DNA from: Solirubrobacterales bacterium
GTDB lineage: Bacteria; Actinomycetota; Thermoleophilia; Solirubrobacterales; 70-9
Direction: 5' to 3'
Assembly (NCBI GenBank): GCA_036513995.1
Contig: DATBXZ010000139.1
Location: forward strand, 1 to 32,134
Length of the DNA: 32,134 bases
Within the stretch, counting starts at the first letter, position 1; each line of letters opens with the position of its first letter. Shown here in pieces: positions 1 through 23,170 of the stretch. Position numbers and translations under genes: made by a program. The notes under the pieces were generated by a model. It worked only from the letters and a program-made list of their open reading frames with translations, was not told the origin of the DNA and ran no database searches.

Positions 1-1467
1 CCGCCGCTGATGGCGCCGGTCCCGGGATCGCGGGCGACGGCCTGTACACCGCCGAAGAAGAGGTTGATCTCGGGCCGGCGGGCGACCGCGAGGCCGCGGG
101 CCTCGAGCCGGGCCAGCGCCGCCTCGTCGATCCCCGGCTCCGCCTGGACGACGCCATGCTCGAAGTGCAGGCGTGGTGCCTCGATCGCCGCCGCCACCGG
201 CAGTTCCTGCTCGACCGTGCGGACGACGGTCTGCAGGATCGCCGAGCGGATCCGGTTGGAGCCGGCGCTGCCGACCCCGAGCACGATCTCGCCGTCGCGC
301 AGGACCATGGTCGGAGCCATCATCGACGGCACCCGGCGGCCAGGCAGGATGCTGTGGAAGCCGAGCGGGTTGAGATCCTCCTCGCCCAGCATGTTGTTGA
401 GGATCACCCCCGTGCCCGGGACCAGCACGCCGGAGCCGGAGCCGTTGGAGCAGGTGACGCCGGCGCACATGCCCTCGCCATCGAGGACCGAGATGTGAGT
501 AGTCGAGCCGAGCAGGTCGCCGGCGGCGAGGTCGAGCCCGGCCGGCTCGAGGAAGCCGGCCTCCATCCCCTCCTCGTAGAGCGCTTCGGCGAACTCGATG
601 CCGCGGCGGCGGTTGGCCGCGTCCATCGCCGCGACCAGCTGCTCGGGGCCGCTCTCGGCGCCAAGCCGCTCGAGCAGGCCGAGGCAGTAGGCGACGAGGA
701 TCCCACCCGAGGACGGGGGCGGGTTGGTCAGCACCTCGGCGCCGCGGAACGGGGCGCGGATCGGCTTGCGCTCGATCGCCTCGTAGGCGGCGAAGTCGCC
801 GCGGCCGAGGGTGCCGCCGTTGGCGACCACGAAGTCGCTCAACGCCGCCGCCACCTCACCACGGCAGAACGGCTCCGCCCCTTCGGCGCCGAACCGTTCC
901 AGCGCCTCGGCCAGCTCGCCGAAGCGGAACTCCTCGCCCTCGCGCAGCGTCCTGCCATGCGGCGCGTACAGCTCCCGCGTGCCCTCGAGCCGGTCGTGGA
1001 TCGGGCCGAGGATGTCGAGGATGTAGGCCTGCTCGGCGTTGACCGGCGCCCCCTCCCGGGCCAGGCGGATACCGGGGCCGACGAGGTCGGCGAGCGGCGC
1101 CGAGCCGAAGCGCTCCAGCGCCCGCACCAGGCCGGCGGCGGTTCCCGGCACACCACAGGAGGCCGGGCCGACGTAGAACGTCTGCACCGTCTCGGCGTCG
1201 AAGTGGACCGGCACCGGCGCCAGCTCGGTTCGCCGCGCGATTCCGTCGAGACCGGGCGCCGCCACGAAGAAATCGATCAGCGCCGTCTCCCCGCCACGGT
1301 GGACCATCATGTAGCCGCCGGCGCCGAAGCCGGTCAGCGGACTCTCGACGGCGAAGGAGGCCAGCACCGCGCAGACCGCGGCGTCGACCGCGTTGCCGCC
1401 CTCGCGCAGGACCCCGGCACCGGCCTCGGCCGTGAGCGGGTGGCCGGCGGCGACGACCCCTTTCATC
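1..1467 (-). CDS. ggt: gamma-glutamyltransferase family protein, first 489 codons (3' end lies beyond window start)
   Basis: Missing from the ORF track because it has no stop codon in the window. Reading the reverse complement from ATG (1467..1465) stays open to position 1: MKGVVAAGHPLTAEAGAGVLREGGNAVDAAV... GGT hallmarks seen by eye: nucleophile/autoprocessing motif LLGSTTHISVLD, GSGSGVLVPGTGVILNNMLGEED, GRRVPSMMAPTMV, GSAGSNRIRSAI. GC3 is high in this frame. Confidence 0.85.
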
Positions 1468-1481
1468 GGGCGCAGCTCGTG

Positions 1482-2963
1482 CTAGCCGGGGAGGAACTCA
1501 GGGACGTCGATGCCGAGCTCACCGGAGCGCTCGGGCGGGCGGCCGCGACCGCTTTCCTTGGTGCGGCGGATGGTCGGCTCGGTGGCGCGGCGCGGCGCGC
1601 TCGGGCGACCGTCGAAGCGGGTGGCGACGACGGTGACCCAGATCTGGTCGGAGAGCTCGTCGTCGACGTTGGCGCCGAAGATGATGTTGGCGTCGGGGTG
1701 GGCGGCCTCGCCGACCACCTTGGCCGCCTCGCTGACCTCGACCAGCGAGAGGTCGGAGCCACCGGTGATCGAGAGCAGGATCGAGCGGGCGCCCTCCATC
1801 GAGGTCTCCAGCAGCGGCGAGGAGATCGCTTTCTCGGCGGCGAGGATGGCGCGCTCGTTGCCGTGCGCCATGCCGATCCCGAGCAGGGCCCGGCCGGCGT
1901 CAGACATGATCGTCCGCACGTCGGCGAAGTCGAGGTTGATCACGGCCGGCAGAGTCACCAGGTCGGAGATGCCCTGGACGCCCTGGCGCAGCACGTCGTC
2001 GGCGACCTGGAAGGCCTCGACCATCGAGGTCTGCTGGTCGAGCACCTCGAGCAGGCGGTCGTTGGGGACGACGATCAGGGTGTCGACCTCGGCGGCCAGC
2101 TCCTCGATGCCTTTCGCGGCCTGCGAGCCGCGCTTGTTGCCCTCGAAGGTGAAAGGCTTGGTGACGATGCCGACGGTCAGCGCGCCGACCTCGCGGGCGA
2201 GGCGGGCAATTACTGGGGCGGCCCCGGTACCTGTTCCGCCGCCCGCGCCGGCGGCGACGAAGACCATGTCGGAGCCCTTGAGCAGGCGCTTGATCTTGTC
2301 CTGCTCCTCGAAGGCGGAGCGGTGGCCGACCTCGGGGTCGGCGCCGGCGCCGAGGCCGCGGGTCTGCTCGTCGCCGATGTGGACGGTGACGTCGGCGACG
2401 CAGAGCTGCAGCGACTGAAGATCGGTGTTGACGGCCATGAACTCGACCCCGGGGATGCGGGCGTCGACCATGCGGTTGACCGCGTTGACGCCGGCACCGC
2501 CGACGCCGACGACTTTGATCACCGGCTGGTGCGGCTCGCCGCTGCCGGGCGGCTCGTAAGCCGGCTCTTCGCGCCCGTAACGCGGGTTGCTCACGGAGGG
2601 TTCCTCGCGGCGCTCGTAGCGCGGCTTCGGTTCCTCGGAGAAGACCCTCTTCAACCGCTCCGGCGGAGTCTCGGCAGGGGGATCTTCAGCTATAGGACCT
2701 TCGGAATCTTGGTCGTACAGAGGCGCCTCTGGCGTGGATGGGCGCTCCTCGCCCGCAGCCTGCGAGGACGAGGAGTGCTCGTCCGCGACAGGACCCGCGG
2801 CCTGAGGCTCCTGTGCCTCGGCCTCCTTCTTGGCCTCGGCGGGATCCTGGCGGCCGTACCTGGGCGCCTCGGGCGGATCGGCGGGAGCGTCCTCCGAAGT
2901 CGAGCGGAAGAGGTCGGAGAGGGGACCCTCGCGCATGCTTGCGCGCTTATTGCGTCGAGCCAT
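1482..2963 (-). CDS. ftsZ: cell division GTPase FtsZ with an N-terminal extension of about 147 aa
   Basis: Tubulin signature GGGTGTGAAPVIA, VIKVVGVGGAGVNAVNRM, T7-loop INLDFADVRTIM, and C-terminal peptide GIDVPEFLPG. Start chosen at ATG 2963..2961 (MARRNKRASMREGP...) because GAAGGAGG lies 9 nt upstream. The track ORF extends to 3041 but has no RBS there and would overlap the upstream gene by 95 nt. Confidence 0.93.
   Translation of the reverse strand: MARRNKRASMREGPLSDLFRSTSEDAPADPPEAPRYGRQDPAEAKKEAEAQEPQAAGPVADEHSSSSQAAGEERPSTPEAPLYDQDSEGPIAEDPPAETPPERLKRVFSEEPKPRYERREEPSVSNPRYGREEPAYEPPGSGEPHQPVIKVVGVGGAGVNAVNRMVDARIPGVEFMAVNTDLQSLQLCVADVTVHIGDEQTRGLGAGADPEVGHRSAFEEQDKIKRLLKGSDMVFVAAGAGGGTGTGAAPVIARLAREVGALTVGIVTKPFTFEGNKRGSQAAKGIEELAAEVDTLIVVPNDRLLEVLDQQTSMVEAFQVADDVLRQGVQGISDLVTLPAVINLDFADVRTIMSDAGRALLGIGMAHGNERAILAAEKAISSPLLETSMEGARSILLSITGGSDLSLVEVSEAAKVVGEAAHPDANIIFGANVDDELSDQIWVTVVATRFDGRPSAPRRATEPTIRRTKESGRGRPPERSGELGIDVPEFLPG
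2731..2790 (-). repeat. copy A of a 60-nt direct repeat (inside the ftsZ N-terminal extension)
   Basis: ggcgtggatgggcgctcctcgcccgcagcctgcgaggacgaggagtgctcgtccgcgaca matches 3905..3964 at 55/60 positions by hand alignment, in the same orientation. It encodes ADEHSSSSQAAGEERPSTPEA. Confidence 0.9.
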
Positions 2964-4110
2964 TCGCCAGAACCTCCTTCGCCAACTCCCGGTAGTAGTT
3001 CGCGGCGCTGCTGCCGGAATCGTACTTGAGGACGCTGGCACCCTTGACGGGGGCCTCGGCGAATTTGATCGCCTTGCGGATCCGGGACTTGAAGACGAGG
3101 TCGCCGAAGTTCTCTTCGAGGATTTCCACCGCCTCCTTGGCGTGGACGGTCCGCGTGTCCAGCATCGTCGGCAGGATGCCCTCGATCTTGACGTCGGGGT
3201 TGAGGTTCTCCTGGATCATCTTCAGCGTGTTCTGGAGCTGGACCAGCCCGCGCATCGAGAGATACTCGCACTGCACGGGGACGATCACTTTGTTCGACAC
3301 GGTGAGCGCGTTGATCGTCAGCAGGCCGAGGCTGGGCGGGGTGTCGATGCAGATGAAGTCGTACTCGCCGTCGACCTCTTTCAGCCCCTTCTCGAGCGAG
3401 CGCTCGCGGCCGATCTTGGTGCTCATCGCGATCTCGGCGCCGGCCAGGTCGATCGAGGCGACGGCGATGTCGATCTCGCGCTTGACGATGATCTCGCTGA
3501 TCGGCATGTCGTTGACGAGCACGTCGTAGAGGCTCTTTTCGACCTTGTCCGGATCGATTCCCTGGCTCATCGTCAGGTTGCCCTGCGGGTCGAGGTCGAT
3601 GCAGAGCACGCGGTAGCCGGACTCGGCGAAGGCGACGGCGAGGTTGAGTGTCGTGGTGGTCTTGGCCACCCCGCCCTTCTGGTTGGCGAAGGCGATCACG
3701 TCGGCGTGCTTGACCGGCAGCTCCGGCTCGGCGTGCAGCTCACGCGCGGCGTCCAACCTGCTCGGCGCGATCAAGTCCCTGGGCAGCATCCGCGCCGGCT
3801 CCTCGGGCTCGGCCTTGACCACGGGCGGTGCCGGCGCAGGGGCCGTGGCAACCTGCTCAACCGAAGCGGCCGGTCCCGAATCCTCTGGCCTCCCTCCCGC
3901 GGGTGGCGCGGATGGGTGCTCCTCGCCCGCAGCCGGCGAGGACGAGGAGTACTCGTCCGCGCCACCCGCGGGCCGGGGGCTCGATCCCTGAGATTCGGCG
4001 ACAGCCCGCTCGGGCACCGCTTCCTCCATGCGCTGGAGCTCTTCGACGATCGGGTGCTGCTCGTCGACCTGGATAGGGGCTGGCTTCGGCTTGCGGCTTA
4101 GAAATCCCAT
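2947..4110 (-). CDS. orphan ParA/Soj/MinD-family P-loop ATPase with a disordered N-terminal extension of about 135 aa
   Basis: Deviant Walker A FANQKGGVAKTTTTLNLA, then RVLCIDLDPQGNLT, DFICIDTPPSLGLLTINAL, VIVPVQCEYLSMRGL. The start is uncertain: ATG 4110 gives 387 aa, in-frame ATG 4029 gives 360 aa, and ATG 3789 gives 280 aa. High GC3 from about codon 13 onward, plus a peptide cassette shared with FtsZ, argue that most of the extension is translated. Confidence 0.85.
   Translation of the reverse strand: MGFLSRKPKPAPIQVDEQHPIVEELQRMEEAVPERAVAESQGSSPRPAGGADEYSSSSPAAGEEHPSAPPAGGRPEDSGPAASVEQVATAPAPAPPVVKAEPEEPARMLPRDLIAPSRLDAARELHAEPELPVKHADVIAFANQKGGVAKTTTTLNLAVAFAESGYRVLCIDLDPQGNLTMSQGIDPDKVEKSLYDVLVNDMPISEIIVKREIDIAVASIDLAGAEIAMSTKIGRERSLEKGLKEVDGEYDFICIDTPPSLGLLTINALTVSNKVIVPVQCEYLSMRGLVQLQNTLKMIQENLNPDVKIEGILPTMLDTRTVHAKEAVEILEENFGDLVFKSRIRKAIKFAEAPVKGASVLKYDSGSSAANYYRELAKEVLANGSTQ
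2973..2980 (-). promoter_or_regulatory. Shine-Dalgarno (GAAGGAGG) for ftsZ, embedded in the last codons of the upstream parA-like gene
   Basis: Minus-strand sequence reads ...GCGAAGGAGGTTCTGGCGAATGGCTCGACGCAATAA... The ATG of ftsZ sits 9 nt after GGAGG. The TAA stop of the parA-like gene (2949..2947) lies 14-17 nt inside ftsZ. Confidence 0.75.
3905..3964 (-). repeat. copy B of the 60-nt direct repeat (inside the parA-like N-terminal extension)
   Basis: ggcgcggatgggtgctcctcgcccgcagccggcgaggacgaggagtactcgtccgcgcca. It encodes ADEYSSSSPAAGEEHPSAPPA, which matches the FtsZ copy at 16/21 aa. The offset of 1174 nt equals the frame offset between the two genes, so both copies are read in the same relative frame. 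Confidence 0.9.
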
Positions 4111-4173
4111 TGCGCCGATATTCGTATGGGGGGCCGCTTTTCCTGCCGGCCTTCGAAATTGCTAGGAATTGCC
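4095..4173. promoter_or_regulatory. AT-enriched island at the parA-like / arsA-like divergent junction (probable divergent promoter region)
   Basis: About 46% A+T over 79 nt (hand count) against a background of about 30%. Sequence: ggcttagaaatcccattgcgccgatattcgtatgggg...gaaattgctaggaattgcc. The longest ORFs on the two strands both begin at nucleotide 4110, which leaves no intergenic space. Confidence 0.35.
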
Positions 4174-5096
4174 CGATCCCCGAGCTTCTCGACAAGCGAC
4201 TGGTCATCGTCACCGGCAAGGGTGGCGTCGGCAAGACGACGGTCGCCGTGGCGCTCGGGATGCGCGCCGCCGCCGAAGGCAAGCGGACGATCGTCTGCGA
4301 GGTCTCCGCCCAGGACAACGCCTCGCGGATGTTCGACCACACCGAGGTCGGCTTCCACGAGGTGGAGATGGAGGAGAACCTCTGGTCGATCTCGATCGAC
4401 CCCGACGAGTCGATGCGCGAGTACGTGCTGCTGCAGCTGAAGGTGCGGGCGATGCGCGACATGCTCTTCCGCAGCCGCATCTTCAACTACCTCGCCGCCG
4501 CCACTCCCGGGCTCAAGGAGCTGGTCACGATCGGCAAGATCTGGGAGCTGGCCCAGCTCGACCGCAAGGTGAAGAAGGGGCGCAAGTACGACCTGGTGAT
4601 CGTCGACGCGCCCGCCACCGGCCACGGCGTCGGCTTTCTGCAGACGCCGCGCACCTTCGCCAGCATCGCCCGGGTCGGTCCGATCCACTCGCAGGCGCAG
4701 ACCCTCGACCGCTTCATCACCGACCACGAGCACACCGGCGTCGCGATCGTGGCGCTGCCGGAGGAGATGCCGGTCAACGAGTCGGCGGCGTTGGAGACGG
4801 ACCTGCGCGACGAGGTCGGCGTCGCCGTCGACCGCGTCTACCTCAACGGCCTCTACCCCGAGCGCTTCTCCAAACCCGAGGCCGAGCGGCTGGCGGGCCT
4901 GGCCGAGGGCGAGGAGGGCGCGGTGCGGGCAGCCGCGCGGGCGGCGCTCTCCGAGCAGGGGCGGGCCCGCTCCCAGCGCGCCCAGCTGGCTCGCCTGCGG
5001 CGCCGGGTCGAGGCGCCGGTCAAGTCCCTCCCCTTCCTCTTCGAGCCCGACCTCGGACCCGAGGCGGCGCGGCAACTCTCCAGGAAGCTCTCCTGA
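4110..5096 (+). CDS. ArsA/Get3-like P-loop ATPase (first of a pair)
   Basis: LVIVTGKGGVGKTTVAVALG P-loop and the ArsA-type switch II signature VIVDAPATGHGVGFLQ. The only canonical in-frame start before the P-loop is TTG 4110. The first 20 codons or so have poor GC3, so the true start is unresolved. The stop overlaps the next start (TGATG at 5094..5098). Confidence 0.8.
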   Translation: MRRYSYGGPLFLPAFEIARNCPIPELLDKRLVIVTGKGGVGKTTVAVALGMRAAAEGKRTIVCEVSAQDNASRMFDHTEVGFHEVEMEENLWSISIDPDESMREYVLLQLKVRAMRDMLFRSRIFNYLAAATPGLKELVTIGKIWELAQLDRKVKKGRKYDLVIVDAPATGHGVGFLQTPRTFASIARVGPIHSQAQTLDRFITDHEHTGVAIVALPEEMPVNESAALETDLRDEVGVAVDRVYLNGLYPERFSKPEAERLAGLAEGEEGAVRAAARAALSEQGRARSQRAQLARLRRRVEAPVKSLPFLFEPDLGPEAARQLSRKLS

Positions 5097-6247
5097 TGCC
5101 CACGCTCGGCGACGTCCTCGACGGCAAGGAGATCTGCATCTGCGCCGGGTCGGGCGGGGTCGGCAAGACGACCACCTCGGCGGCAATCGCGACCGGGATG
5201 GCGGCCCAGGGGCTGAAGGTCTGCGTGCTGACGATCGACCCGGCCAAGCGGCTCGCCGACTCGCTCGGGCTGAAGGAGCTGGGCAACGAGGCGCGCCGGG
5301 TCGACCCGAAGCTGTTCGAGAAGCAGGGCGTGGAGATGAAGGGCGAGCTGTGGGCGATGATGCTCGACGCCAAGGCGACCTTCGACGAGCTGGTCGCGCG
5401 CCAGGCGCCGGACGAGGAGGCGCGCGACCGCGTCCTCGAAAACCGCATCTACCAGCAGATCTCCAGCGCCCTCGCCGGCTCCCAGGAGTACATGGCGATG
5501 GAGAAGCTGTTCGAGCTGCACACCGAGGGCGGGTTCGACCTGCTCGTCCTCGACACGCCGCCGACCCGCAACGCGCTCGACTTCCTCGACGCGCCGAAAC
5601 GGCTAACCCAGTTCATCGAGGGCAGATCGCTGCGGATGTTCATGAAGCCGACCGGGCTGGCGGCGAAGGTCGCCGGCCGCGGCGCCTCGGTCGCGCTGGG
5701 GATCTTCAAACGGATCGTCGGCTTCGACCTGCTGGCCGACCTGGCCGAGTTCTTCAACGCCTTCAGCGGCATGGTCGACGGCTTCCAGGCCCGGGCGAAA
5801 CGGGTGAACAAGCTGCTCGCCGACCCCGGCACCTGCTTCCTGGTCGTCTGCGGCCCCCAGGGCGAGCCGGTCGACGAGGCCGTCTACTTCCACCGCAAAC
5901 TGATCGAGGCGAAACTGCCCTTCGGCGGCGTCATCGTCAACAAGGTCCACTACCCGTCGGAGGAGCTGGCCGGCGAGCCGGCCGACCTGCCGGCGACCCT
6001 TACCGAGAAGCTCGGCGACGAGGACCTGGCGCAGCGGGTGGCGGCGAACTTCTCCGACTACCAGGCCCTGGCCGAGCGCGACGCCCGCAACATCGAGCGC
6101 CTGGCGACCGAGCTGCGCACCCGTGGCGTGATCCGGGTCCCCTACCTAGACGAGGACGTCCACGACCTCGCCGGCCTGGCCGAGATCAACCGCTACCTGT
6201 TCGCGACCGGCGAGGAGCGGGTGGCGATGGCGGCGGGCCGGGCCTAG
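5096..6247 (+). CDS. ArsA/Get3-like P-loop ATPase (second of the pair, divergent switch II)
   Basis: MPTLGDVLDGKEICICAGSGGVGKTTTSAAIATG, TIDPAKRLADSLG, LLVLDTPPTRNALDFLDAP. ATG 5096 overlaps the upstream stop. The first 309 codons of the 692-aa track ORF (4169..6247) are a shadow frame over the first ATPase. Confidence 0.85.
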   Translation: MPTLGDVLDGKEICICAGSGGVGKTTTSAAIATGMAAQGLKVCVLTIDPAKRLADSLGLKELGNEARRVDPKLFEKQGVEMKGELWAMMLDAKATFDELVARQAPDEEARDRVLENRIYQQISSALAGSQEYMAMEKLFELHTEGGFDLLVLDTPPTRNALDFLDAPKRLTQFIEGRSLRMFMKPTGLAAKVAGRGASVALGIFKRIVGFDLLADLAEFFNAFSGMVDGFQARAKRVNKLLADPGTCFLVVCGPQGEPVDEAVYFHRKLIEAKLPFGGVIVNKVHYPSEELAGEPADLPATLTEKLGDEDLAQRVAANFSDYQALAERDARNIERLATELRTRGVIRVPYLDEDVHDLAGLAEINRYLFATGEERVAMAAGRA

Positions 6248-7941
6248 CTGGCGCGGCTGTCGGGGTCGCCGTAGTGCGCGTAGTCGAACTCGAGGTGGCT
6301 GACCTCCCAGTCGGCGTCCTCGGGGACCGGAAAGAGATGGCGCACGCGAGGAGTGTCGATGCGCTCGCGGTGTTCGATGTCGCGCTCGCTGGCGGCGGGC
6401 CACTCGAGCGAGTCGCCGCGGCGCTCGTCTGAGACCTCCTCGAGCCACGGCGTCGCCGTGATCTTGATCTCGTCTTCGGCCGGGATCGGCTCCATGATGC
6501 GGGTCTCCTGCTCCATGAACTCCTCCTCGGTCGATGCGATTTCGATTGGCTCGGGGCGCGCGACGGGCTGCGGAAGCTGTTCGACGCGGAACTCTGGGGG
6601 CTTCGCGATCGGCTCGGGCGGGCGGATCGCCTCGACGGGCTCGGGCGGCACGACGGACTCGATGGCGGCCTCGATCTCCTCGGCGGCTGTGAAGGCGATC
6701 TCGGAGTCGCCGCCTTCCAGGCCGGTGACGATCAGAGTCTCGTCGGCGGTGGCGTTGAGGTCGTTGCCGAGCTCGCCGAGAGCGGCCTGCAGCAGCAGCC
6801 TGCGGACCCCATCCTCGGCCCAGCCGGCCAGGCGCACGCCGTTCTCCAGCGAGCGGCCGTTCATCAGAGCGCGCTCGAGCTCGAGCGTGTCCTCGATCTT
6901 TTCGCGGGCCTCGATCCGGTCCAGCGAGTCGTCGGAGATCAGCGCCGCGGCGCGCATCGGCAGCGAGGCGCCGACCGGGCCGTGGCCCTCGAGCACCGCT
7001 CGCAGAGCCAAAAGGTGGTCGCTGAGCCCGTCGAGCGCGCTCTCGCGCTCGCAGCCCATCTCGAAGCGGCCGACCGCCCAGGTGAGGGCGCTGTCGGGGT
7101 CGGGACGGGCCTCCAGCGTGCCGGCCAGCTCGACCAGCTCGCCTGCCTCCTCCTCGCTGAGTCGGTAGCCACCGGGGCGGGTCGCGGGGGCGCCGGTGGC
7201 GATCCGCCGCCAGCAGTCCTCGCCGGTCGGGGCGAAGGCGAAGGGGCCGAGCCCGATGCCACCGCCTTTGAAGAGCCTCATCACGCTGATCAGCTCGCGC
7301 AGCTGGTTGAGGGCAGCCTCGGCGCCTTCCTCCTCGTGCTGCTCGGCGACGGCGAGGTACTGCGGCTCCCAGGAAGCGCGCCCCATGCCCTCGCTGCGCA
7401 TCGCGTCGATCGGGGCGTCGATCGCGTCGGAGCGGACCACACGCACCCCGTGCGGCAGTTGCAGCCGGGCGATCGACATCCGCAGGCCGACCACGGGGAC
7501 GATCACCACCTCGGCGTCGTCGGCGCCGCGCGCTTCGGCATCGAGCATCGAGAGCGCGCTGTCGAGCCGCGCCCGGTCGAGCGAGAACTCGGTCGACCCC
7601 TCCCAAAGCGCGGAAATGAAGACGGTGAGCATCCGTTCCGCCCGCTCGCCCGGGTCGGCGGGGACGGACTCGCCGCGCTCCTCCAGGTAGGCGGAGGCGA
7701 CGCCGGCCTCGATCGCGGCCTCGCGGGCGGGGCCGAAGCTGGGCAGGGAGCGGAGCTCCTGGGCGCGTTCCTCGACGAAGCGCGAGGTCAGCGGCACGTA
7801 GCTGTAGAAGGCCGAGTCGTCGCCGCTCTCGGCGGAGACGTCGAAGGGAATCTGGTCGCCGCTGGCGACGAGAGAGCTGAAGCGCGTGGCGGCCTCGGTG
7901 GCCAGCCGCTTCAGCGCTTCGTTGAGGAGGAAATCACGCAC
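6244..7941 (-). CDS. hypothetical protein, 565 aa, acidic, with a Pro/Glu-rich C-terminal third
   Basis: This is the only frame here with balanced amino-acid composition; the competing frames are Arg/Gly/Pro-rich shadow frames. GTG start at 7941 has GGAAG about 8 nt upstream. I recognised no family motif. The C-terminal part contains PPEPVEAIRPPEPIAKPPEF...PQPVARPEPIEI and Trp/acidic motifs. Confidence 0.7.
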   Translation of the reverse strand: MRDFLLNEALKRLATEAATRFSSLVASGDQIPFDVSAESGDDSAFYSYVPLTSRFVEERAQELRSLPSFGPAREAAIEAGVASAYLEERGESVPADPGERAERMLTVFISALWEGSTEFSLDRARLDSALSMLDAEARGADDAEVVIVPVVGLRMSIARLQLPHGVRVVRSDAIDAPIDAMRSEGMGRASWEPQYLAVAEQHEEEGAEAALNQLRELISVMRLFKGGGIGLGPFAFAPTGEDCWRRIATGAPATRPGGYRLSEEEAGELVELAGTLEARPDPDSALTWAVGRFEMGCERESALDGLSDHLLALRAVLEGHGPVGASLPMRAAALISDDSLDRIEAREKIEDTLELERALMNGRSLENGVRLAGWAEDGVRRLLLQAALGELGNDLNATADETLIVTGLEGGDSEIAFTAAEEIEAAIESVVPPEPVEAIRPPEPIAKPPEFRVEQLPQPVARPEPIEIASTEEEFMEQETRIMEPIPAEDEIKITATPWLEEVSDERRGDSLEWPAASERDIEHRERIDTPRVRHLFPVPEDADWEVSHLEFDYAHYGDPDSRAS

Positions 7942-8505: not shown

Positions 8506-9915
8506 ATGGGCATGTTGGCGGCCCCCGGACGAACCAGCCCTCCTCGCAGCAACCGCGAGGGGGGCTTCGCCCTGATCGAGGTTCTGATCAGCGGCCTGAT
8601 CGCGGTCACGATGACTGGCGCGGTTTTCGGTCTGCTGACCGCATCGGGCCGGTCGGGCACCGAAGACCGTCACCGGACCCAGGCCTACTCGTTGGGCCAG
8701 GAAGACCAAGCACGAATGAGAGGGATGAGGATCTCGACCCTCAACGGGTACAGCCGCGTCAGCCAACCGATCCTTCTCAACGGTGCCGAATACAAAGTCA
8801 CCTCCAGAGCCTCCTTCGTCAACAACAACAGCTCGGCGGCCTCCTGCGAAGAAGGCAACTCCTCGGTCGACTACGTGAAACTCTCCTCGGAAGTCACCTG
8901 GGTCGGCACCAACGGCCGCAAAGTCCAGAACCCGGCCCTAGTCGAGAGCATCATGACCCCCTCGAACGGCTCACTTGACCCGACCCACGGGTCGCTGGTC
9001 TTCCAGGTCACCAACGCCTCGAACGTCGCGATCAGGGAAGTGACCCTGAACACGACCGGGAGCTCTAACCCGGCCAGCCTCAGCGGCAGGACGGACGAAA
9101 ACGGCTGCGCGATCTTCATCGACCAGCCGGAAGGGACGTACTCCATCCTGCCCGGCGGCCTGGCGGCCGGATACGTCAACGAAGACGACGAAGCGCCTGC
9201 GGCGGAACCCTGGGGGATCACCGGCGGCTCTACCAAGACCGTTCAGCTCCACTACGACAAGGGGGCGGCGATCAATGCGAGCTTCAAGGTCCGGCCGTAC
9301 TCCGGCACTCCACCGCTCAGCGAAAACAAGGTCGATTCGGTGCGGGTACTCCAGAATCAGTGGACCGTGCAGGAAAAAATCTTTGGGTCGGTCGGCGGCA
9401 CCCGCTCGACGCCATTCGTGCTCGGCTCGCTCTACCCCTTTGCTAGCTCCTCCTACGTCTATTGGGCGGGGACCTGTGCGGCCAACCAGCCGCCCGCTGG
9501 GGTGATGCTGGGAAGCACCGCTGTCACCTCCGGCGGGACGAGCGCAACGGCACCGCAACTCCCCGCCTTCTATCCAACCGTGATGGGTGAAAACGCGACC
9601 GGAACCATGGTCCCACTCAGCGGCGCCAAGCTGACCGTCGAAGACGAAGGAACCGGTTGCACGGGGAAGCGCGAATTCCTGACGAATACCTCAGGGCAGC
9701 TTAACGAACCAGGGCTTCCGTACGACAACTACAAAGTCTGCGCTTCGGGGTCGGTCACGACCAGAAAGGCGACTGGCACCGAAACAGAAACCAAGATTCG
9801 GCGCGCGACAGCGTCAAACGTCTCCGTCAAGAGCATCACGGGAACCCCCCTCACCCTGGAAATCAAGGGCGCAAGAGCCACAGGTGGCGCATCCCCAGAA
9901 GGCGCGTGCCCATGA
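8506..9915 (+). CDS. large pilin-like protein with a prepilin N-terminal cleavage/methylation motif (469 aa)
   Basis: MGMLAAPGRTSPPRSNREGG|FALIEVLISGLIAVTMTGAVFGLL shows a G/F cleavage site, Glu5 and a hydrophobic helix. The C-terminal part has a beta-rich segment (GRTDENGCAIFIDQPEGTYSI) that resembles carboxypeptidase-regulatory-like folds. Confidence 0.8.
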   Translation: MGMLAAPGRTSPPRSNREGGFALIEVLISGLIAVTMTGAVFGLLTASGRSGTEDRHRTQAYSLGQEDQARMRGMRISTLNGYSRVSQPILLNGAEYKVTSRASFVNNNSSAASCEEGNSSVDYVKLSSEVTWVGTNGRKVQNPALVESIMTPSNGSLDPTHGSLVFQVTNASNVAIREVTLNTTGSSNPASLSGRTDENGCAIFIDQPEGTYSILPGGLAAGYVNEDDEAPAAEPWGITGGSTKTVQLHYDKGAAINASFKVRPYSGTPPLSENKVDSVRVLQNQWTVQEKIFGSVGGTRSTPFVLGSLYPFASSSYVYWAGTCAANQPPAGVMLGSTAVTSGGTSATAPQLPAFYPTVMGENATGTMVPLSGAKLTVEDEGTGCTGKREFLTNTSGQLNEPGLPYDNYKVCASGSVTTRKATGTETETKIRRATASNVSVKSITGTPLTLEIKGARATGGASPEGACP

Positions 9916-10607
9916 GCTTGCGGCGCGTGCTCAAGGACGAGAGCGGCATGACCCTGGTCGAGCTGCTCGTCGCGACGGCGACGGGCACAGTCGTGATGGC
10001 GATGGTCACGGCGGTGCTGATCACCACCATGCACGTGTCGAACCGGGTTGCTAGTCACGTCGAGGCGAACCAGCTCGCGCGGCTGACAATGGGAAAGGTG
10101 ATCGACCAGTTGCACTCCTCCTGCGTCGCCTACGACTATGCCCCGATCAAAGAAAACAGCAATGGCAGCACGCTGATCTTCACCCATCAGACCGGGAGCG
10201 CGGTGCAGCCGGTCCCGGTCAAATCCGAAATTGTCTTCTCCGGCGGCAAATTGACCCAGGCCGACTATCCCTCGACCGGCGGCTCGGCACCGAACTGGAC
10301 CTTCGCGACCTCGCCCGCGACGACCACGACGTTGACGACCAACGTCAGTCAGATCGGCTCGACCCCAATCTTCCGCTACTACGGCTACAACACGAGCGGG
10401 GCGATCTCCTCAACCCCGCTGGCCGAACCGCTGAACAAGGAAAACGCCGAACGCGCGGTCCAGGTCTCAGTCGCTTTCGGGGCCGGCCCACGCACACTTA
10501 GAACCGCCAACGACAGCGGGGCAGTCACCCCGATCCAGAGCTCGGCGCTGCTGCGTCTCACCCCCGCCAGCTTCGAAGCCGGCCCCGAAAACTCACCATG
10601 CCAATGA
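9912..10607 (+). CDS. minor pilin-like protein (PilW-like prepilin motif)
   Basis: MSLRRVLKDESG|MTLVELLVATATGTVVMAMV. ATG 9912 overlaps the upstream stop (ATGA). The track start at 9906 is GTG. Confidence 0.8.
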   Translation: MSLRRVLKDESGMTLVELLVATATGTVVMAMVTAVLITTMHVSNRVASHVEANQLARLTMGKVIDQLHSSCVAYDYAPIKENSNGSTLIFTHQTGSAVQPVPVKSEIVFSGGKLTQADYPSTGGSAPNWTFATSPATTTTLTTNVSQIGSTPIFRYYGYNTSGAISSTPLAEPLNKENAERAVQVSVAFGAGPRTLRTANDSGAVTPIQSSALLRLTPASFEAGPENSPCQ

Positions 10608-12241
10608 ACACCGGGAAGGCGAAATCCGAGGACGGTTTCACGATGATCATCACGCTGATCGCGATGACCGTGATGATGATGCTCGCGGTGGTCGCCGTCA
10701 CAGCGGTCAACGGCGACGGTCACCTCAGCCTGCGCAACCTCGAACAGAAGCAGGCCTACGAGGCGGCCAAGGCCGGCGTCGAAGACTATGCCTTCCATCT
10801 CGACGCTACAAACGGCTCCTATTGGGAAAAATGCACCAACGTGGAACTGCCGAACGCCGTCAATCAGATCGGCTCAACCGCAAAGACCCGCCCGGTGCCC
10901 GGGACGACGGGAGCCAAATACGCGATCGAACTGATCCCTTCCTCGACGCAGACGAGATACACCCAGTGCAGTGAAATCGATCCTTCCGGGAGCATGCTCG
11001 AGCAGACCGGACAGCTGCCGGGGTCGTTCCGGATCCGATCGAACGGCTTCGCCGGCAAGGCGAAAGCGACGATCGTCGCCACTTTCAAACGGCCGAGCTT
11101 CCTCGACTACGTGTACTTCACCCAGTTCGAGACCTCGGACCCGATCACCTATGCGGGGGAAAAGACCTGGCTCCCGGAAGCGTACAAGCAATGCGAAAAA
11201 ACGATGCAGGAAGGACGCTACGCTCAAGAAATTCCGGGTTCGAACGGCGTCTATTGCAACGTGATCTCGTTCAAGTCGGGCGAGGCGATCAGGGGCCCGC
11301 TGCACAGCAACGACGCGATCTTCGTCTGCGGCAACCCGACCTTCGGCCGCAGCCCCGCCGACTCGATCGAGGTCGGCGCCCCGAGCCCCGGCTGGTATGG
11401 GGGCACCAATGCTGCGCTCGGCGAAGCCCGACTCGGCTCACGCGAATGCCCGAGGGCGGAACCAACATTCCCGGGAACCTTCAAAACCAGCTCACCGCCG
11501 CTCAACCCACCGACGACCAACAGCGAACTCTCGACCATCGCCGAACCGGCTTTCAGGTATAGCGGCCAGGTGCGAATCTGCCTCAGCGGCGCGACCATGA
11601 AGGTGAGCACCAACGGGACCTGCGACGGCAGCAAATACTCGGGGGCGATCCCCGCCAACGGCGTCGTCTACGTCTTCAACAACAGCTCCTGCGTGAGCTC
11701 GAAATACGACCCGTACAAGGTCACCTACGAAACGACCTCCGGTTGCGGCAACGCGCTGGTCTCGGGCGAAAACTACTCAGGCCAGCTGACGATCGCCGCC
11801 GAAAACGATGTCCTGATCTCCGGGCCACTGACCCGCCAGTCCGGAACCAACGGGATGCTCGGCCTGATCGCCAATAACTTCGTCCGCGTCTTCCATGCCT
11901 ATCCGACCGAGAAGTACAACGCGGAAGGCAAGGTCGAATGCGGAAGCGGAGCCGGCGAGTCACGACTCGAAAACCTCGAGATCGACGCCGCGATTCTGGC
12001 GATCAAACACTCCTTCATCGTCGACCACTACAACTGCGGCAACGATATGGGCAGTCTGACCGTGAAGGGCGCGATCGCGCAGAAGTTCCGCGGCCCGGTC
12101 GGCACCTTCAGCGGCTCCACGACGGTCAACGGCTACTCCAAGAACTACGAATACGACGACAGGCTCCGCTACGCGGAGCCACCGAGCTTCCTTGACCCGG
12201 TCACCAAGTCCTGGGTGATCGGCAGGGAGACCGCCGGCTGA
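10598..12241 (+). CDS. PilX-N-domain-like pseudopilin / putative tip protein (547 aa, no Glu5)
   Basis: MPMNTGKAKSEDG|FTMIITLIAMTVMMMLAVVAVTAV...QKQAYEAAKAGVEDY resembles the PilX N-terminal domain. A large C-terminal region follows. An alternative ATG at 10604 forms an ATGA overlap with the upstream stop. Confidence 0.75.
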   Translation: MPMNTGKAKSEDGFTMIITLIAMTVMMMLAVVAVTAVNGDGHLSLRNLEQKQAYEAAKAGVEDYAFHLDATNGSYWEKCTNVELPNAVNQIGSTAKTRPVPGTTGAKYAIELIPSSTQTRYTQCSEIDPSGSMLEQTGQLPGSFRIRSNGFAGKAKATIVATFKRPSFLDYVYFTQFETSDPITYAGEKTWLPEAYKQCEKTMQEGRYAQEIPGSNGVYCNVISFKSGEAIRGPLHSNDAIFVCGNPTFGRSPADSIEVGAPSPGWYGGTNAALGEARLGSRECPRAEPTFPGTFKTSSPPLNPPTTNSELSTIAEPAFRYSGQVRICLSGATMKVSTNGTCDGSKYSGAIPANGVVYVFNNSSCVSSKYDPYKVTYETTSGCGNALVSGENYSGQLTIAAENDVLISGPLTRQSGTNGMLGLIANNFVRVFHAYPTEKYNAEGKVECGSGAGESRLENLEIDAAILAIKHSFIVDHYNCGNDMGSLTVKGAIAQKFRGPVGTFSGSTTVNGYSKNYEYDDRLRYAEPPSFLDPVTKSWVIGRETAG

Positions 12242-12338
12242 CGACGAAACAGGCGAAGCGGCGGCATCGCCGCTCGTTCCGGTCCAAAAGTTGCGGAAGC
12301 AAAGTTTTCCGTGCCGGTATGTCGATGAGAGAAGACAG

Positions 12339-13421
12339 ATGTTGGAGCTCACCCGCAAGAAAGACAAGTCGCTGGTCGGACTCGAGATCGAGGCCGACTC
12401 GATCGCCGCGACCGAAGTTCGGGTCAACGGCGACACGAACGTCGCCGCAACGGCGCTCGCCCCCCTGCCCCCGGGCGCCTTCCACGAAGGCGAGGTTGTC
12501 GAGCCTGAAGCCGTCGCCGAGAGCCTGAAGCAGCTCTTCTCTCAACACAAGCTCTCCAAGCGCGTGCGCCTCGGCATCGCCAACCAGAAGGTCGTCGTCC
12601 GTACCCTGCGCCTGCCGGCAATCGAGGATCCAAAGGAGCTGGATGCCGCAATCCGCTTCCAGGCCACCGAGCAGATTCCGATGCCCCTCGACCAGGCTGT
12701 CCTCGACCACCGCGTCGTCGGCGGCGTCGGCGCGGCCGACGGAGAGGCACCGAAAATCGACGTGGTCGTCGTCGCCGCTCGTCGCGACATGATCAGCGCC
12801 TCACTGCAGCCACTCCGCGACGCAGGCCTCGAACCGGTTGGCGTCGACCTCTCGGCCTTCGGCATGATCCGCGCGCTCGAGGTCTCCGCGCCAGTTGCGG
12901 AAGACGAGGTCGCGGGCACGACGGACAGCGGCGCGGTTCTCTATTGCAACGTCGGCGATGTAACCAACCTGGCGGTCGCCAAAGGCCGCTCCTGCCTCTT
13001 CACGCGCATCGCCCCCGCCGGACTCGAGGCGATGGCCACCGATCTCGCCCGCTCGACCGGGTTGACCCGGGAACACGCCCAGCAATGGCTCGGCCATGTC
13101 GGCCTCGAGCTTCCACTCGACCAGATCTCCGGCGACCCTGGCCTGGCCGGGCAGGTCCGCGCCACTCTCGAGGCTGGCGCCGCCTCCCTCGTCGACGAGC
13201 TTCGCCTCTCACTCGACTTCTACGGCACCCAAGACAATTCCGTCCCGGTCGAACGCGTCGTGCTCGGTGGTCCCGCTACGGCCATTCCCGGCCTCGTGCA
13301 GCAGATGAGCGCCCAACTGGGCCTCCCGGTCGAGGCTCGCTGCCCCCAGGCTCTCGGCGCGCTGGACGAATCCACGGCAGCGCGACTCACCCTCTCCTAC
13401 GGCCTCGCTCTCGAGGACTAG
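12339..13421 (+). CDS. pilM: type IV pilus assembly protein PilM (actin-like ATPase fold)
   Basis: MLELTRKKDKSLVGLEIEADSIAATEV..., LGIANQKVVVRTLRLPAI, FQATEQIPMPLDQAVLD, VGVDLSAFGMIRAL. ATG 12339 is preferred over TTG 12291. Confidence 0.88.
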   Translation: MLELTRKKDKSLVGLEIEADSIAATEVRVNGDTNVAATALAPLPPGAFHEGEVVEPEAVAESLKQLFSQHKLSKRVRLGIANQKVVVRTLRLPAIEDPKELDAAIRFQATEQIPMPLDQAVLDHRVVGGVGAADGEAPKIDVVVVAARRDMISASLQPLRDAGLEPVGVDLSAFGMIRALEVSAPVAEDEVAGTTDSGAVLYCNVGDVTNLAVAKGRSCLFTRIAPAGLEAMATDLARSTGLTREHAQQWLGHVGLELPLDQISGDPGLAGQVRATLEAGAASLVDELRLSLDFYGTQDNSVPVERVVLGGPATAIPGLVQQMSAQLGLPVEARCPQALGALDESTAARLTLSYGLALED

Positions 13422-13423
13422 CA

Positions 13424-14185: not shown

Positions 14186-14186
14186 G

Positions 14187-16605: not shown

Positions 16606-16660
16606 CGAGCGAGGGTTTTATCCGACCCGCCGGTCGAGTCTCTGTGACGTGGCTTTCGCG

Positions 16661-18040: not shown

Positions 18041-18102
18041 GTCTGTCACCTCGACCAAATGTCGACGACCCTGAGCGTTGGTACACGTTCTGGACGAAAG
18101 CA

Positions 18103-18132
18103 CGAGGGGCGGGCCTCTCGACCCGCCCCTCG
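18103..18132 (-). terminator. probable intrinsic terminator or attenuator after pilA
   Basis: Perfect 11-bp stem cgaggggcggg / cccgcccctcg with an 8-nt loop, 49 nt downstream of the pilA stop. On the transcribed strand it is followed by UGCUUUCGU. Confidence 0.6.
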
Positions 18133-18180
18133 GCGACTACATACTCAGGCTGCTTCGGCCCGAGCAAAGCAACTAGAGGA

Positions 18181-18669: not shown

Positions 18670-18674
18670 AGGTA

Positions 18675-18680
18675 CCTCCT
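18675..18680 (-). promoter_or_regulatory. Shine-Dalgarno AGGAGG of pilA
   Basis: Minus strand reads ctAGGAGGtacctATG. Confidence 0.8.
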
Positions 18681-18940
18681 AGTGGACCTATCGTTTGCGC
18701 CATTGCCCGGGCTTTGGGGTCCGAGACACTGGCAATTACCCCCTCCTCATCGACCCCTAGCGCCCCACCTTTAGCCTCTGCACGGACAAATTCGGGAAGT
18801 ACTAATTTTTGCTTCTGAGCAGCGAAAAGTGCGGTTCGGGGCAGCTAAAAATATTGAGGCAGAAGCACCGTCCTCAGAATTGTTGACCGCCCAGACGTAC
18901 GAACGTCTAGACAGTCGAGAACATCACGTCGACGCTCGGG
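18681..18940 (-). promoter_or_regulatory. pilA upstream region (AT-enriched; probable promoter plus long leader)
   Basis: The full non-coding gap (18670..18940) is 271 nt and is the largest in the pilus locus. It contains A/T-rich tracts (aaaaatatt, actaattttt), 8-bp inverted arms tgcttctg (18811-18818) / cagaagca (18860-18867), and the hairpin agacgt-acga-acgtct (18893-18908) just after the pilC stop. Confidence 0.45.
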
Positions 18941-20182: not shown

Positions 20183-20185
20183 GAC

Positions 20186-23168: not shown

Positions 23169-23170
23169 GC

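Follow-up and report, generated by a model that had tools for sequence, protein, structure and literature searches.

How the division ring is placed in actinobacteria is a long-standing open question, and we know of neither a Min system nor a nucleoid occlusion factor in these bacteria. A 32,134-nt stretch of DNA from a Solirubrobacterales bacterium (hereafter, the window) raises this question in a specific form: a gene for a ParA-like ATPase overlaps ftsZ, and the issue is whether the ATPase acts on FtsZ or is only expressed together with it. Both genes are located on the minus strand, with parA-like at 2947..4110 (387 aa) and ftsZ at 1482..2963 (493 aa).

The parA-like stop codon (TAA, 2949-2947, minus-strand reading) lies inside ftsZ, for which the ATG occupies positions 2963-2961, and the resulting overlap, from the parA-like stop to the ftsZ start, is 17 nt long (2947..2963, minus strand); ftsZ contains an additional in-frame ATG at 2936. 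The 3' end of parA-like reads, in frame, ...AAG GAG GTT CTG GCG AAT GGC TCG ACG CAA TAA, and its final codons include the Shine-Dalgarno sequence of ftsZ, GAAGGAGG (2973..2980, minus strand), 9 nt 5' of the ATG at 2963. The first-pass annotation had claimed both that the parA-like stop falls within ftsZ and that a ribosome-binding site for ftsZ in the end codons of the ATPase gene couples the two genes tightly, and both claims were borne out. Among 77 genomes of related species in which the frames are intact, AAGGAGG precedes ftsZ in all 77, with a spacer of 9 nt in 76. The overlap, too, is conserved in these relatives, but not its exact length, which is 14 nt in 51 of the 77, 17 nt in 24, and 4 nt in the remaining two.

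The two genes adjoin in all 82 Solirubrobacterales loci, and the pair is kept by all 80 related species genomes. It is also present in two Thermoleophilaceae loci (L083, L084), with an overlap of 14 nt, and in two Gaiellaceae loci (L085, L086), with an overlap of 29 nt and other flanking genes. The adjacency, the conservation of which the first-pass annotation had proposed to check, and the loss of which in relatives it would have taken as a refutation, thus spans three orders of Thermoleophilia, a class of soil actinobacteria and, because the flanking genes differ in Gaiellaceae, the conserved unit is the parA-like/ftsZ pair itself. Judged by the junction and its conservation, parA-like and ftsZ are a translationally coupled two-gene operon that is kept across the class.

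The surroundings of the pair in the window agree with the original description, namely, ggt downstream, a divergent ATPase pair upstream, no dcw genes flanking ftsZ, and no parB. The ATG of ggt is at 1466, 15 nt past the ftsZ stop, and two other loci (L001 and L002) carry a Pfam G_glu_transpept annotation at the equivalent place; ggt is found downstream of ftsZ in two orders, whereas in Gaiellaceae it is 3.5-6 kb distant. The divergent upstream genes encode ArsA/Get3-type ATPases, with BagA/BagB as the best-matching models. Among the 26 scanned ORFs of the window, there was no match to the Mur ligase, FtsQ/A/W, SepF, or ParB families. The window also carries a type IV pilus cluster, an rpoD-like sigma factor gene, glpX, and a GGDEF-EAL gene. 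More broadly, no dcw gene was found near ftsZ at any pair locus examined, and no ParB gene within 10 kb in about 86 loci; ParB annotation is absent at L001, L002, and L083-L086, and a ParB-like N-terminal motif was not found in any locus examined.

The parA-like product is a deviant Walker A ATPase of the Soj/ParA type (AAA_31, 5e-61; CbiA, 7.6e-27), with the start MGFLSRK kept by almost every orthologue that has an intact frame. The closest solved structures are the Mycobacterium smegmatis protein 5IF9/4PFS (E 7e-61) and Myxococcus xanthus ParA, 8RAY (6.5e-57), to which the core is 45% (5IF9, a mycobacterial orphan ParA) and 40% (8RAY, a canonical ParA) identical. The residues of the core (aa 136-387; 2950..3705, minus strand) were mapped via the 8RAY alignment and checked in 77 orthologues, with roles assigned as in ParA (PMC12462528). 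In the Walker A motif KGGVAKT (3658-3678, minus strand), both lysines are present in 77/77 orthologues, and Ala replaces the middle Gly of canonical ParA. The catalytic motif DLDPQGN and the Walker B motif DTPPSLG are invariant, and the equivalents of D58, D60, and N64 are intact in 77/77. Also conserved in the 77 orthologues is the ParB-peptide pocket, formed by I227, L261, L263, I266, M298, and L303 (relative to M. xanthus ParA, V116→I, L150, L152, L155→I, L187→M, and L192). The ParB-arginine site of ParA consists of Y81, E82, D110, and E117, with Y81 and E117 reported as invariant (PMC12462528); Y81, E82→D, and D110 are conserved here as Y195, D196, and D221, and the equivalent of E117 is A228, with Ala in 77/77 orthologues. 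At the sequence level, K349 aligns with R238 of M. xanthus ParA (R189 of Bacillus subtilis Soj), the basic residue involved in non-specific DNA binding; this position is occupied by K in 73 and by R in 4 of the 77 orthologues, with R found in Thermoleophilaceae and Gaiellaceae. With the catalytic, pocket, and DNA-binding residues intact, the ATPase looks functional.

Of the initial assignment to a "ParA/MinD-type", the ParA part stands, given the AAA_31 match and the DNA-binding residue, and the MinD part does not. MinD-type identity was rejected because the protein, which ends ...YRELAKEVLANGSTQ, lacks a C-terminal amphipathic membrane-targeting helix, scores 51.2 bits against minD_bact (TIGR01968), far under the cut-off of 212.9, and retains the basic residue for DNA binding. 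The MinCDE system likewise relies on a ParA/MinD-family ATPase that governs Z-ring placement but, apart from these differences, the 32-kb window contains neither minC nor minE. By its profile matches and residues, then, the ATPase belongs to the Soj/ParA type rather than to the MinD type. It scores 114.2 bits against NCBIfam ParA_partition, under the 180-bit cut-off, and 44.9 bits against Pfam MipZ, over profile positions 2-137 of 262, that is, the N-terminal half, where this match overlaps that of AAA_31 at 206 bits.

The ATPase core is preceded by a 135-aa N-terminal arm (3706..4110, minus strand), in which a hypervariable disordered stretch separates conserved islands, namely, MGFLSRKPKP, a helix at aa 20-30 (PIVEELQRMEEA), and MPRDLIAPSR; AF2 predicts the helix and gives pLDDT <50 for aa 35-105. 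The first-pass annotation regarded this arm as part of an architecture of its own. The disordered arm is indeed present, with about 96-171 aa among the species of the clade, but it is missing in Thermoleophilaceae orthologues and in Gaiellaceae does not exceed about 29 aa, so, on the sequences compared, it is a lineage-specific rather than a defining feature.

FtsZ is, by its sequence features, canonical apart from its own disordered N-terminal arm. It scores 418.1 bits against TIGR00065 (cut-off, 295.2), matches Pfam Tubulin (1.7e-45) and FtsZ_C (8.3e-32), and keeps the nucleotide-binding motif GGGTGTG (GAGGGTGTGAAP) and the T7 loop NLDFADV, both of which are conserved in the other orders. 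The C-terminal peptide of FtsZ is the usual docking site for membrane anchors; as read off the translation, it is IDVPEFLPG (1485..1511, minus strand), with the counterparts DIDVPEFIPR in Thermoleophilaceae and LEPPSFLQS in Gaiellaceae. Core identity among species is 92-98%. One scan of the genome collection gave orthologues only, about 2.5 Mb of related loci contain no second ftsZ, and the ftsZ of the pair is probably the only one in the cell.

The conserved oddity of the pair, as far as the alignments tell, is found on FtsZ, not on the ATPase. The FtsZ arm opens with the peptide MARRNKRASMREGPLSDLFRST (aa 1-22; 2898..2963, minus strand), to which the first-pass annotation had not drawn attention. 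Across 65 FtsZ sequences of three orders, this peptide never varies at M10, R11, E12, G13, P14, L15, L18, F19, R20, or T22, and R7, A8, and S9 each show conservation of 90% or more; the shared consensus is RASMREGPL[AS]xLFRxT. The very N-terminus, MARRNKRASMREGPLSDLFR, has six basic residues among the first 11. The rest of the disordered arm (aa 23-145; 2529..2897, minus strand) contains the islands APRYGR, PPERLKRVFSEEP, and NPRYGREEPAYEPPGSGEP, and is predicted by AF2 with pLDDT mostly <50 and a short helix at aa 100-109. Among FtsZ cluster representatives, only those of Thermoleophilia can be aligned to the query starting at the N-terminus. The peptide occurs only where the pair does, and an FtsZ lacking it, from locus L207, is encoded in a murB-ftsQ-ftsZ setting without parA; thus, the peptide tracks the pair.

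Activating peptides of ParA/MinD ATPases, including those of the ParB N-terminus, MinE, and the N-terminus of PomX, are short, conserved, positively charged, located at the extreme N-terminus, and followed by an unstructured region (PMC7993993). The FtsZ peptide fits this description, being basic, invariant from M10 to T22 at the positions listed, and followed by an arm with pLDDT <50, and so looks like the basic activators of these ATPases. Compared with the ParB motif L11-x-R13-x-L15-x-x-L18-I19 (PMC12462528), the FtsZ counterpart is M10-R11-E-G-P-L15-S-D-L18-F19, after RRNKR; the match is imperfect in that the basic residue is two positions farther from the L-x-x-L-F helix.

Both arms contain a further shared feature, a palindromic element, of which one copy, encoding ...AGPVADEHSSSSQAAGEERPSTP, lies in frame in the FtsZ arm (2730..2810, minus strand; 3' flank decayed) and another, encoding ...PAGGADEYSSSSPAAGEEHPSAP, in frame in the ATPase arm (3904..3982, minus strand; 5' flank decayed). 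The FtsZ-arm element and the copy at 3904-3964 form a 61-nt direct repeat with 92% identity, and the hairpins have energies of -41.5 kcal/mol (z -2.1) and -49.6 kcal/mol (z -4.1) in the FtsZ and ATPase arms, respectively. Further copies are present in ribosomal proteins, DnaX, and E2, where they occupy disordered tails or linkers; the element favours such acidic disordered tails and linkers. Its flanks, GGGTCCTGTC ... GCCACCC, are conserved, and the interior is highly variable yet always self-complementary. Rickettsia palindromic elements (RPE) were originally reported in Rickettsia. The Solirubrobacterales element resembles RPE and MITE-like repeats as a short dispersed palindrome located in frame within genes, and differs from both by its conserved flanks and variable self-complementary interior, free-living, high-GC hosts, and preference for disordered tails; MITE-like repeats are short, palindromic, genome-dispersed, and able to sit in frame within coding genes (PMC10969869). 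Neither a transposase nor any other mechanism of mobility was found for the element. Its presence in both arms calls for caution, in that shared low-complexity segments may not be shared binding motifs. A structured repeat has thus colonised disordered tails of essential proteins, which bears on the evolution of disordered regions.

Taken together, the coupled pair and the invariant FtsZ peptide suggest, without proving, an undescribed mode of division-ring placement. The best reading, to which we assign a little under an even chance, is that a nucleoid-bound ParA-like ATPase acts directly on FtsZ. The ATP-bound ATPase dimer would be held on the nucleoid by non-specific DNA binding, and the hydrophobic pocket at the dimer edge would take the basic peptide RASMREGPL[AS]xLFR, for which the long disordered FtsZ arm may serve as a tether. 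If the pocket binds this peptide, FtsZ would itself supply the segment that binds ParA and activates the ATPase, and a ParB-, MinE-, or PomX-like adaptor would be unnecessary; the place and timing of FtsZ assembly would thereby be tied to the nucleoid. The effect could go in either direction, with FtsZ inhibited over DNA in the manner of MipZ or nucleoid occlusion, or recruited in the manner of PomZ. The full form of this scheme, in which FtsZ is both cargo and activator of a ParA-type ATPase, with its peptide in the ParB-peptide pocket, in a minimal, adaptor-free, two-protein system for nucleoid-reading Z-ring placement, is a speculative proposal that we regard as rather unlikely. Several considerations weigh against direct action of the ATPase on FtsZ. 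The adjacency could mean mere co-expression, the FtsZ peptide matches the ParB motif imperfectly, and the Ala at the E117 position, where ParB arginine is bound, is present in all 77 orthologues. The ATPase core is about equally close to canonical ParA and to orphan ParA, neither of which is ftsZ-adjacent, which counts against an FtsZ-specific role; some of these relatives are reported as ParB interactors (PMC10482377; PMC4255298).

In a rival scenario, which we take to be possible but doubtful, the ATPase is a chromosome-segregation ParA or a PldP/Rv1708-like paralogue with its ParB partner encoded elsewhere, such that the adjacency to ftsZ provides co-expression and a fixed stoichiometry and the FtsZ peptide binds another partner (a membrane anchor or regulator). 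A Soj/ParA-type core with the ParB-peptide pocket and DNA-binding residue intact, and with M. xanthus ParA and the mycobacterial orphan ParA as its nearest solved relatives, speaks for this scenario, but the roughly 86 loci have zero ParB genes within 10 kb, the overlap with ftsZ is kept in three orders despite changing flanks, the FtsZ peptide is restricted to loci with the pair, and E117 of the ParB-arginine site is lost.

The unusual N-terminal arm of FtsZ and the location of its gene outside any dcw cluster might instead point to a second, specialised paralogue, with a dcw copy elsewhere, that together with the ATPase forms a cytomotive or positioning system not for the main septum. The arm-less FtsZ of L207, encoded in murB-ftsQ-ftsZ and 65% identical in the core, comes from a sample shared with a Thermoleophilaceae contig and may point the same way. 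We consider a paralogue improbable, given the score above the equivalog cut-off (418 bits versus 295), the retention of the GGGTGTG motif, the T7 loop, and the C-terminal docking peptide, a core identity of 92-98% among species, as is typical of a housekeeping gene, the small genomes (about 2.5-2.8 Mb), and the lack of a second ftsZ in about 2.5 Mb of related loci. Nor do we give much credence to a historical accident, that is, an ancestral rearrangement with no functional link, kept by inertia given that overlapping genes are hard to part. In favour of such an accident, ggt likewise remains downstream in two orders, although it is not plausibly connected with division. Against such inertia, the pair and its overlap survive in the reshuffled Gaiellaceae neighbourhood, where ggt is 3.5-6 kb off, AAGGAGG (77/77) and its 9-nt spacer (76/77) are maintained, and a class-specific invariant peptide arose on FtsZ.

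The reading of a nucleoid-bound ATPase that acts directly on FtsZ has partial precedents. MipZ of Caulobacter crescentus, a ParA/MinD-family ATPase with non-specific DNA binding and a direct regulatory effect on FtsZ assembly, is recognised by the Pfam model that matches the N-terminal half of the ATPase, but MipZ needs polar ParB and is not encoded beside ftsZ; the ATPase described here is ftsZ-adjacent and matches the Soj-type AAA_31 far more strongly. Moreover, Caulobacter FtsZ lacks an N-terminal peptide of the activating type, whereas Thermoleophilia FtsZ has a candidate. In the PomXYZ system of M. xanthus, nucleoid-bound, ParA-like PomZ positions the Z ring, similar to the role proposed for the ATPase; this system, however, requires the large scaffolds PomX and PomY, none of which is found beside the parA-like/ftsZ pair, where the candidate activating peptide is on FtsZ itself rather than on PomX. 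Chromosomal ParABS (Soj/Spo0J) shares with the ATPase the fold, deviant Walker A, catalytic motif, DNA-binding basic residue, and ParB-peptide pocket, and differs by the adjacent parB, the ParA_partition score (114 bits, <180, for the ATPase), and E117→Ala. PldP of Corynebacterium and Rv1708-MSMEG_3743 ("mycobacterial MinD") are, like the ATPase, orphan actinobacterial ParA paralogues, which have been implicated in septum placement and reported as ParB interactors (PMC4255298; PMC10482377). In the respective organisms, ftsZ belongs to the dcw cluster, and its product is devoid of the N-terminal peptide. Their genes are presumably located near xerD and scpAB, not beside ftsZ. The top-scoring structure, 5IF9/4PFS, annotated as "cobyrinic acid a,c-diamide synthase", shares the Walker A motif NQKGGVAKTTT, with Ala for the canonical Gly, and likewise has no Glu at E117 but, unlike the ATPase, it lacks an N-terminal arm and is not known to be linked with ftsZ; from the chain length and Walker A position, it is probably an Rv3213c-type paralogue.

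The pair is a tractable system, with two genes that are always together class-wide, a 20-residue invariant peptide, and a defined candidate pocket on the ATPase. Should the peptide activate the ATPase, this would be the first case known to us of FtsZ in the adaptor role of ParB, MinE, or PomX and, if true, it would mean adaptor-free, nucleoid-reading placement of the Z ring in a deep-branching class of actinobacteria.

In the window, the parA-like ATPase gene (2947-4110, minus strand; 387 aa, ParA/MinD superfamily, AAA_31 5e-61) is followed by an overlapping ftsZ gene (1482-2963, minus strand; 493 aa, TIGR00065 at 418 bits, cut-off 295). Homologues of the ATPase carry Solirubrobacterales names. 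With each species represented by a single genome, a scan yielded 80 loci, all from Solirubrobacterales-type MAGs and several of them from complete chromosomes of 2.5-2.8 Mb, and the ATPase gene lies immediately 5' of ftsZ in 80 of the 80. When 50%-identity cluster representatives were searched, few FtsZ clusters aligned with the query from the extreme N-terminus, and the relatives of those that did are Thermoleophilaceae and Gaiellaceae. Two Thermoleophilaceae contigs, one of them of 4.18 Mb, carry a 255-aa ParA-like gene that overlaps ftsZ by 14 nt, with ggt after ftsZ and an ArsA-type pair nearby; two Gaiellaceae loci carry a 256-aa ParA-like gene with a 29-nt overlap, and FtsZ of the Gaiellaceae type also occurs on contigs that exceed 1 Mb. 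The adjacency of the two genes, which the first-pass annotation had proposed to check in relatives, is thus retained in all of the Solirubrobacterales loci and in those of the two other groups. Because the Gaiellaceae loci have different neighbours (lhr, fpg and azlCD upstream of the pair) while the pair persists, the conserved unit in three orders of Thermoleophilia is the pair itself, not the surrounding genes. No dcw gene is found next to ftsZ in any Solirubrobacterales, Thermoleophilaceae or Gaiellaceae locus examined. A FtsZ that lacks the N-terminal arm and peptide is encoded on a further contig (L207, 5700-9776; 149 kb, 73% GC), which shares its sample of origin with the Thermoleophilaceae contig L084; the gene context there is murB-ftsQ-ftsZ, and a ParA-like gene is absent. 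The core of this FtsZ shares 65% identity, and it serves as a negative control; in view of it, a second, dcw-linked ftsZ in the class is conceivable.

Read on the minus strand, the parA-like gene ends ...GCG AAG GAG GTT CTG GCG AAT GGC TCG ACG CAA TAA, with the TAA at 2949-2947. The ftsZ ATG at 2963 opens 17 nt ahead of this stop, and GAAGGAGG, a Shine-Dalgarno site at 2980-2973, lies 9 nt 5' of it; the earlier description of a parA-like stop inside ftsZ, with a 17-nt overlap and a Shine-Dalgarno site, is borne out by this reading. A further ATG in the ftsZ frame is present at 2936. The ATG at 2963 is the better candidate for the start, because the Shine-Dalgarno site belongs to it, the spacing between the two ATGs is constantly 24 or 27 nt in the relatives, and the inter-ATG residues, (K/R)RAS, are kept as amino acids in three orders; the codons for these residues overlap the parA-like end in a different frame, yet the amino acids are conserved. 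Among the relatives, 51 genomes have a 14-nt overlap, 24 a 17-nt overlap and two a 4-nt overlap, and 77 of 77 carry AAGGAGG. At the other end of the operon, no Shine-Dalgarno sequence was detected upstream of the parA-like ATG at 4110 (4100-4140, minus strand), and a -10-like GAATAT ends 7 nt before this ATG, a position that suggests that the parA-like-ftsZ mRNA may be leaderless. Consensus scans of 1200-4400 detected no promoter-like site and a single terminator-like site (2802-2821), which is on the opposite (plus) strand and does not exceed shuffled sequences.

Downstream, ggt (1-1466, minus strand) begins 15 nt past the ftsZ stop. It is directly 3' of ftsZ in Solirubrobacterales and Thermoleophilaceae, and 3.5-6 kb away in Gaiellaceae. 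Given the direct downstream location in both orders, the 15-nt gap and the lack of a terminator-like site on the coding strand within it, ggt is probably co-transcribed with ftsZ. Upstream and divergent lies a bagA/bagB-like pair of ArsA/Get3-type ATPase genes (4110-6247, plus strand), for which the BagA and BagB models are the best match; the Mycobacterium tuberculosis models score 148 and 350 bits, each below its cut-off. As listed, bagA starts at TTG 4110, which would leave no intergenic space to the parA-like gene, and for this reason the true start probably lies some 90 nt deeper in the gene, matching the gene call in the Solirubrobacterales locus L001. Beyond this pair are a conserved hypothetical gene (6244-7941, minus strand; 565 aa, no family match) and a HxlR regulator gene, then a type IV pilus cluster (8506-24921: minor pilins, PilM, PilO, prepilin peptidase, PilC, PilB and two PilT-like ATPases) and, beyond it, genes for an rpoD-like sigma factor, glpX and a GGDEF-EAL protein. 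In two Solirubrobacterales loci (L001 and L002), the pilM-pilO end, together with genes for a prepilin peptidase and a pilin-like protein, is placed identically with respect to the pair. Profile matches identified neither dcw genes nor parB among the genes of the window, in agreement with the setting initially described (ggt downstream, a divergent ATPase pair upstream, no dcw gene and no parB). The trio of bagA, bagB and the 565-aa gene is also present in the Thermoleophilaceae locus L083 and is absent beside the pair in Gaiellaceae. The 565-aa protein was considered as a third component of the system and rejected: its gene goes with bagAB, in Solirubrobacterales and one Thermoleophilaceae locus, and not with the pair in Gaiellaceae.

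The best solved match to the ATPase is the orphan ParA of Mycobacterium smegmatis (5IF9/4PFS; E 7e-61, 45% identity), with which it shares the Walker A box KGGVAKT; ParA of Myxococcus xanthus (8RAY; 6.5e-57, 40% identity) and Soj of Helicobacter pylori and Thermus thermophilus are also among the best, and the MinD and ParF structures score much lower. We placed its residues on the M. xanthus ParA numbering via the 8RAY alignment and read their conservation in 77 orthologues, using the published residue roles in catalysis, the ParB-peptide pocket, the arginine site and DNA binding (PMC12462528). The counts omit six long-read MAG assemblies (L004, L008, L024, L032, L035 and L073) in which the parA-like gene looks frameshifted or truncated, probably through homopolymer sequencing errors and not because these are pseudogenes. 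The Walker A lysines and catalytic motif 2 (M. xanthus D58, D60 and N64) are invariant in the 77 orthologues. The positions of the hydrophobic pocket that takes up the ParB peptide (V116, L150, L152, L155, L187 and L192) read I, L, L, I, M and L, and the ParB-arginine site (Y81, E82 and D110) reads Y, D and D, with E117, reported to be invariant in ParA, replaced by alanine in 77 of 77. R238, implicated in non-specific DNA binding, is K, and R in the two other orders. With its catalytic, pocket and DNA-binding residues intact, no C-terminal amphipathic helix and scores well under the cut-offs of the MinD models, the protein is predicted to be an active-looking, nucleoid-type ParA, not a MinD. 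Of the initial label "ParA/MinD-type", the superfamily assignment, given by the AAA_31 match, stands, and the MinD part does not. The ATPase thus has a putative peptide-binding pocket, an altered arginine site and no adjacent ParB gene.

The FtsZ core and its C-terminal docking peptide are canonical. Ahead of the core lie about 145 residues, disordered in the AF2 model, the tip of which is strongly conserved: in 65 sequences from three orders, M10, R11, E12, G13, P14, L15, L18, F19, R20 and T22 are invariant and R7, A8 and S9 nearly so. This peptide lies at the very start of the protein, carries many basic residues (RRNKR...R) and closes with an L-x-x-L-F helix pattern. It resembles the ParB motif L11-x-R13-x-L15-x-x-L18-I19 (PMC12462528), with identical hydrophobic spacing; it differs in that the FtsZ arginine is two residues further from the helix. 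We infer that this shift and the missing E117 of the ATPase might be related. Comparison of the peptide with solved structures gave no match at E up to 10, and no second copy of it or ParB-like motif was found in the window and the 86 related loci (L001-L086). Within the FtsZ arm (2529-2897, minus strand), PRYGR[EQD][ED]P occurs twice, as APRYGRQDP at aa 33-38 and NPRYGREEP at aa 125-131; both copies are conserved throughout the Solirubrobacterales clade and not in other orders, and may represent a clade-specific docking motif.

The first-pass annotation took a disordered ATPase arm of about 135 aa to be a hallmark of the system. The arm is largely disordered (AF2 model), but it is confined to the Solirubrobacterales clade, where its length ranges between about 96 and 171 aa; it is missing from Thermoleophilaceae, where in L084 a stop codon lies three codons before the ParA-like start, and does not exceed about 29 aa in Gaiellaceae, so that the claim fails. 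In both Gaiellaceae loci (L085:9172-9261 and likewise L086), an in-frame ATG is found further upstream, preceded by GAAAGGGG, and its use would lengthen the ParA-like protein by MGLARLLPRPGNRTETAQGPP. The start of this extension resembles MGFLSRKPKP, invariant in the Solirubrobacterales ATPase arm, and the ATPase may therefore carry a second conserved basic N-terminal peptide.

The two arms share a 61-nt direct repeat of 92% identity (2730-2790 in the FtsZ arm and 3904-3964 in the ATPase arm), and both stretches proved to be decayed copies of one palindromic element (2730-2810 and 3904-3982). Conserved flanks, GGGTCCTGTC ... GCCACCC, enclose an interior of about 40-60 nt that varies and is always self-complementary; there are at least 15 interior types, with a median folding energy of -43 kcal/mol and a median z-score of -4.6. 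Under a strict pattern, the two arms in 78 genomes together hold 108 copies, 106 of which share a codon phase, reading AGPV...PPAG. The element occupies both genes in 40 genomes, parA only in 10 and ftsZ only in 17, the presence or absence of one copy being independent of the other. Copies from one and the same genome resemble each other more than random pairs do (mean identity 0.79 vs 0.69; 0 of 1000 permutations as high), and some exchange between the arms is therefore likely. A metagenome scan for the flanks returned at least 120 stretches, and among the matches listed none carries this ParA or this FtsZ; the element lies in frame in disordered tails, extensions or linkers of the ribosomal proteins S1, S5, S9 and S17, of DnaX and of E2 acyltransferase, and also in intergenic spacers. 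In the 21-kb loci, all five copies outside the arms are in a single spacer between genes for a methyltransferase and a GH57 branching enzyme, in both orientations (L035:17810-17881, L044:16588-16633, L067:17585-17648, L068:7779-7842 and L080:17503-17566). An Rfam scan of 1300-4300, the element included, gave no match, nor was a mechanism of mobility identified for the element. We considered a short linear binding motif shared by the arms through concerted evolution, and also a centromere-like site for the ATPase; the hairpin formation, the multiple interiors, the independent occupancy and the genome-wide dispersal led us to reject both. The segment common to the arms is thus a dispersed repeat with a tolerance of, or a preference for, coding regions that are disordered; it is comparable to the Rickettsia palindromic elements and is not a common binding motif.

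What the pair does can be proposed tentatively. The reading that we find best supported, at somewhat short of an even chance, is that the ATPase dimer acts on FtsZ. The dimer would sit on nucleoid DNA, and the invariant, flexibly tethered N-terminal peptide of FtsZ would be its contact point; translational coupling would set the ratio of the two proteins. The effect on FtsZ could be either inhibitory or recruiting, between which the sequence cannot decide. The main rival, doubtful in our view but a serious contender, is that the partner is a ParB encoded elsewhere, gene order merely co-regulating segregation and division. PldP and Rv1708 are reported to have such a partner. The ATPase belongs to the Soj/ParA type by family, but it lacks an adjacent ParB and one residue reported to be invariant in ParA. 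It is improbable that this FtsZ is a specialised second copy; related loci totalling about 2.5 Mb, a small sample, yielded neither dcw genes nor another ftsZ. Equally improbable is an accident of gene order left by inert history.

Searches of the literature for ftsZ in Thermoleophilia, Conexibacter and Rubrobacter, and for a ParA-like protein with an FtsZ N-terminal extension, found no description of a parA-like-ftsZ operon. A class-wide overlapping operon of this kind outside the dcw cluster appears to be new, as do the invariant, activator-like peptide carried by FtsZ itself and the lack of an adaptor gene beside the pair. If the proposed action of the ATPase on FtsZ holds, the system would be functionally akin to MipZ, PomZ and PldP, and contact between the two proteins would link Z-ring assembly to the position of the nucleoid.
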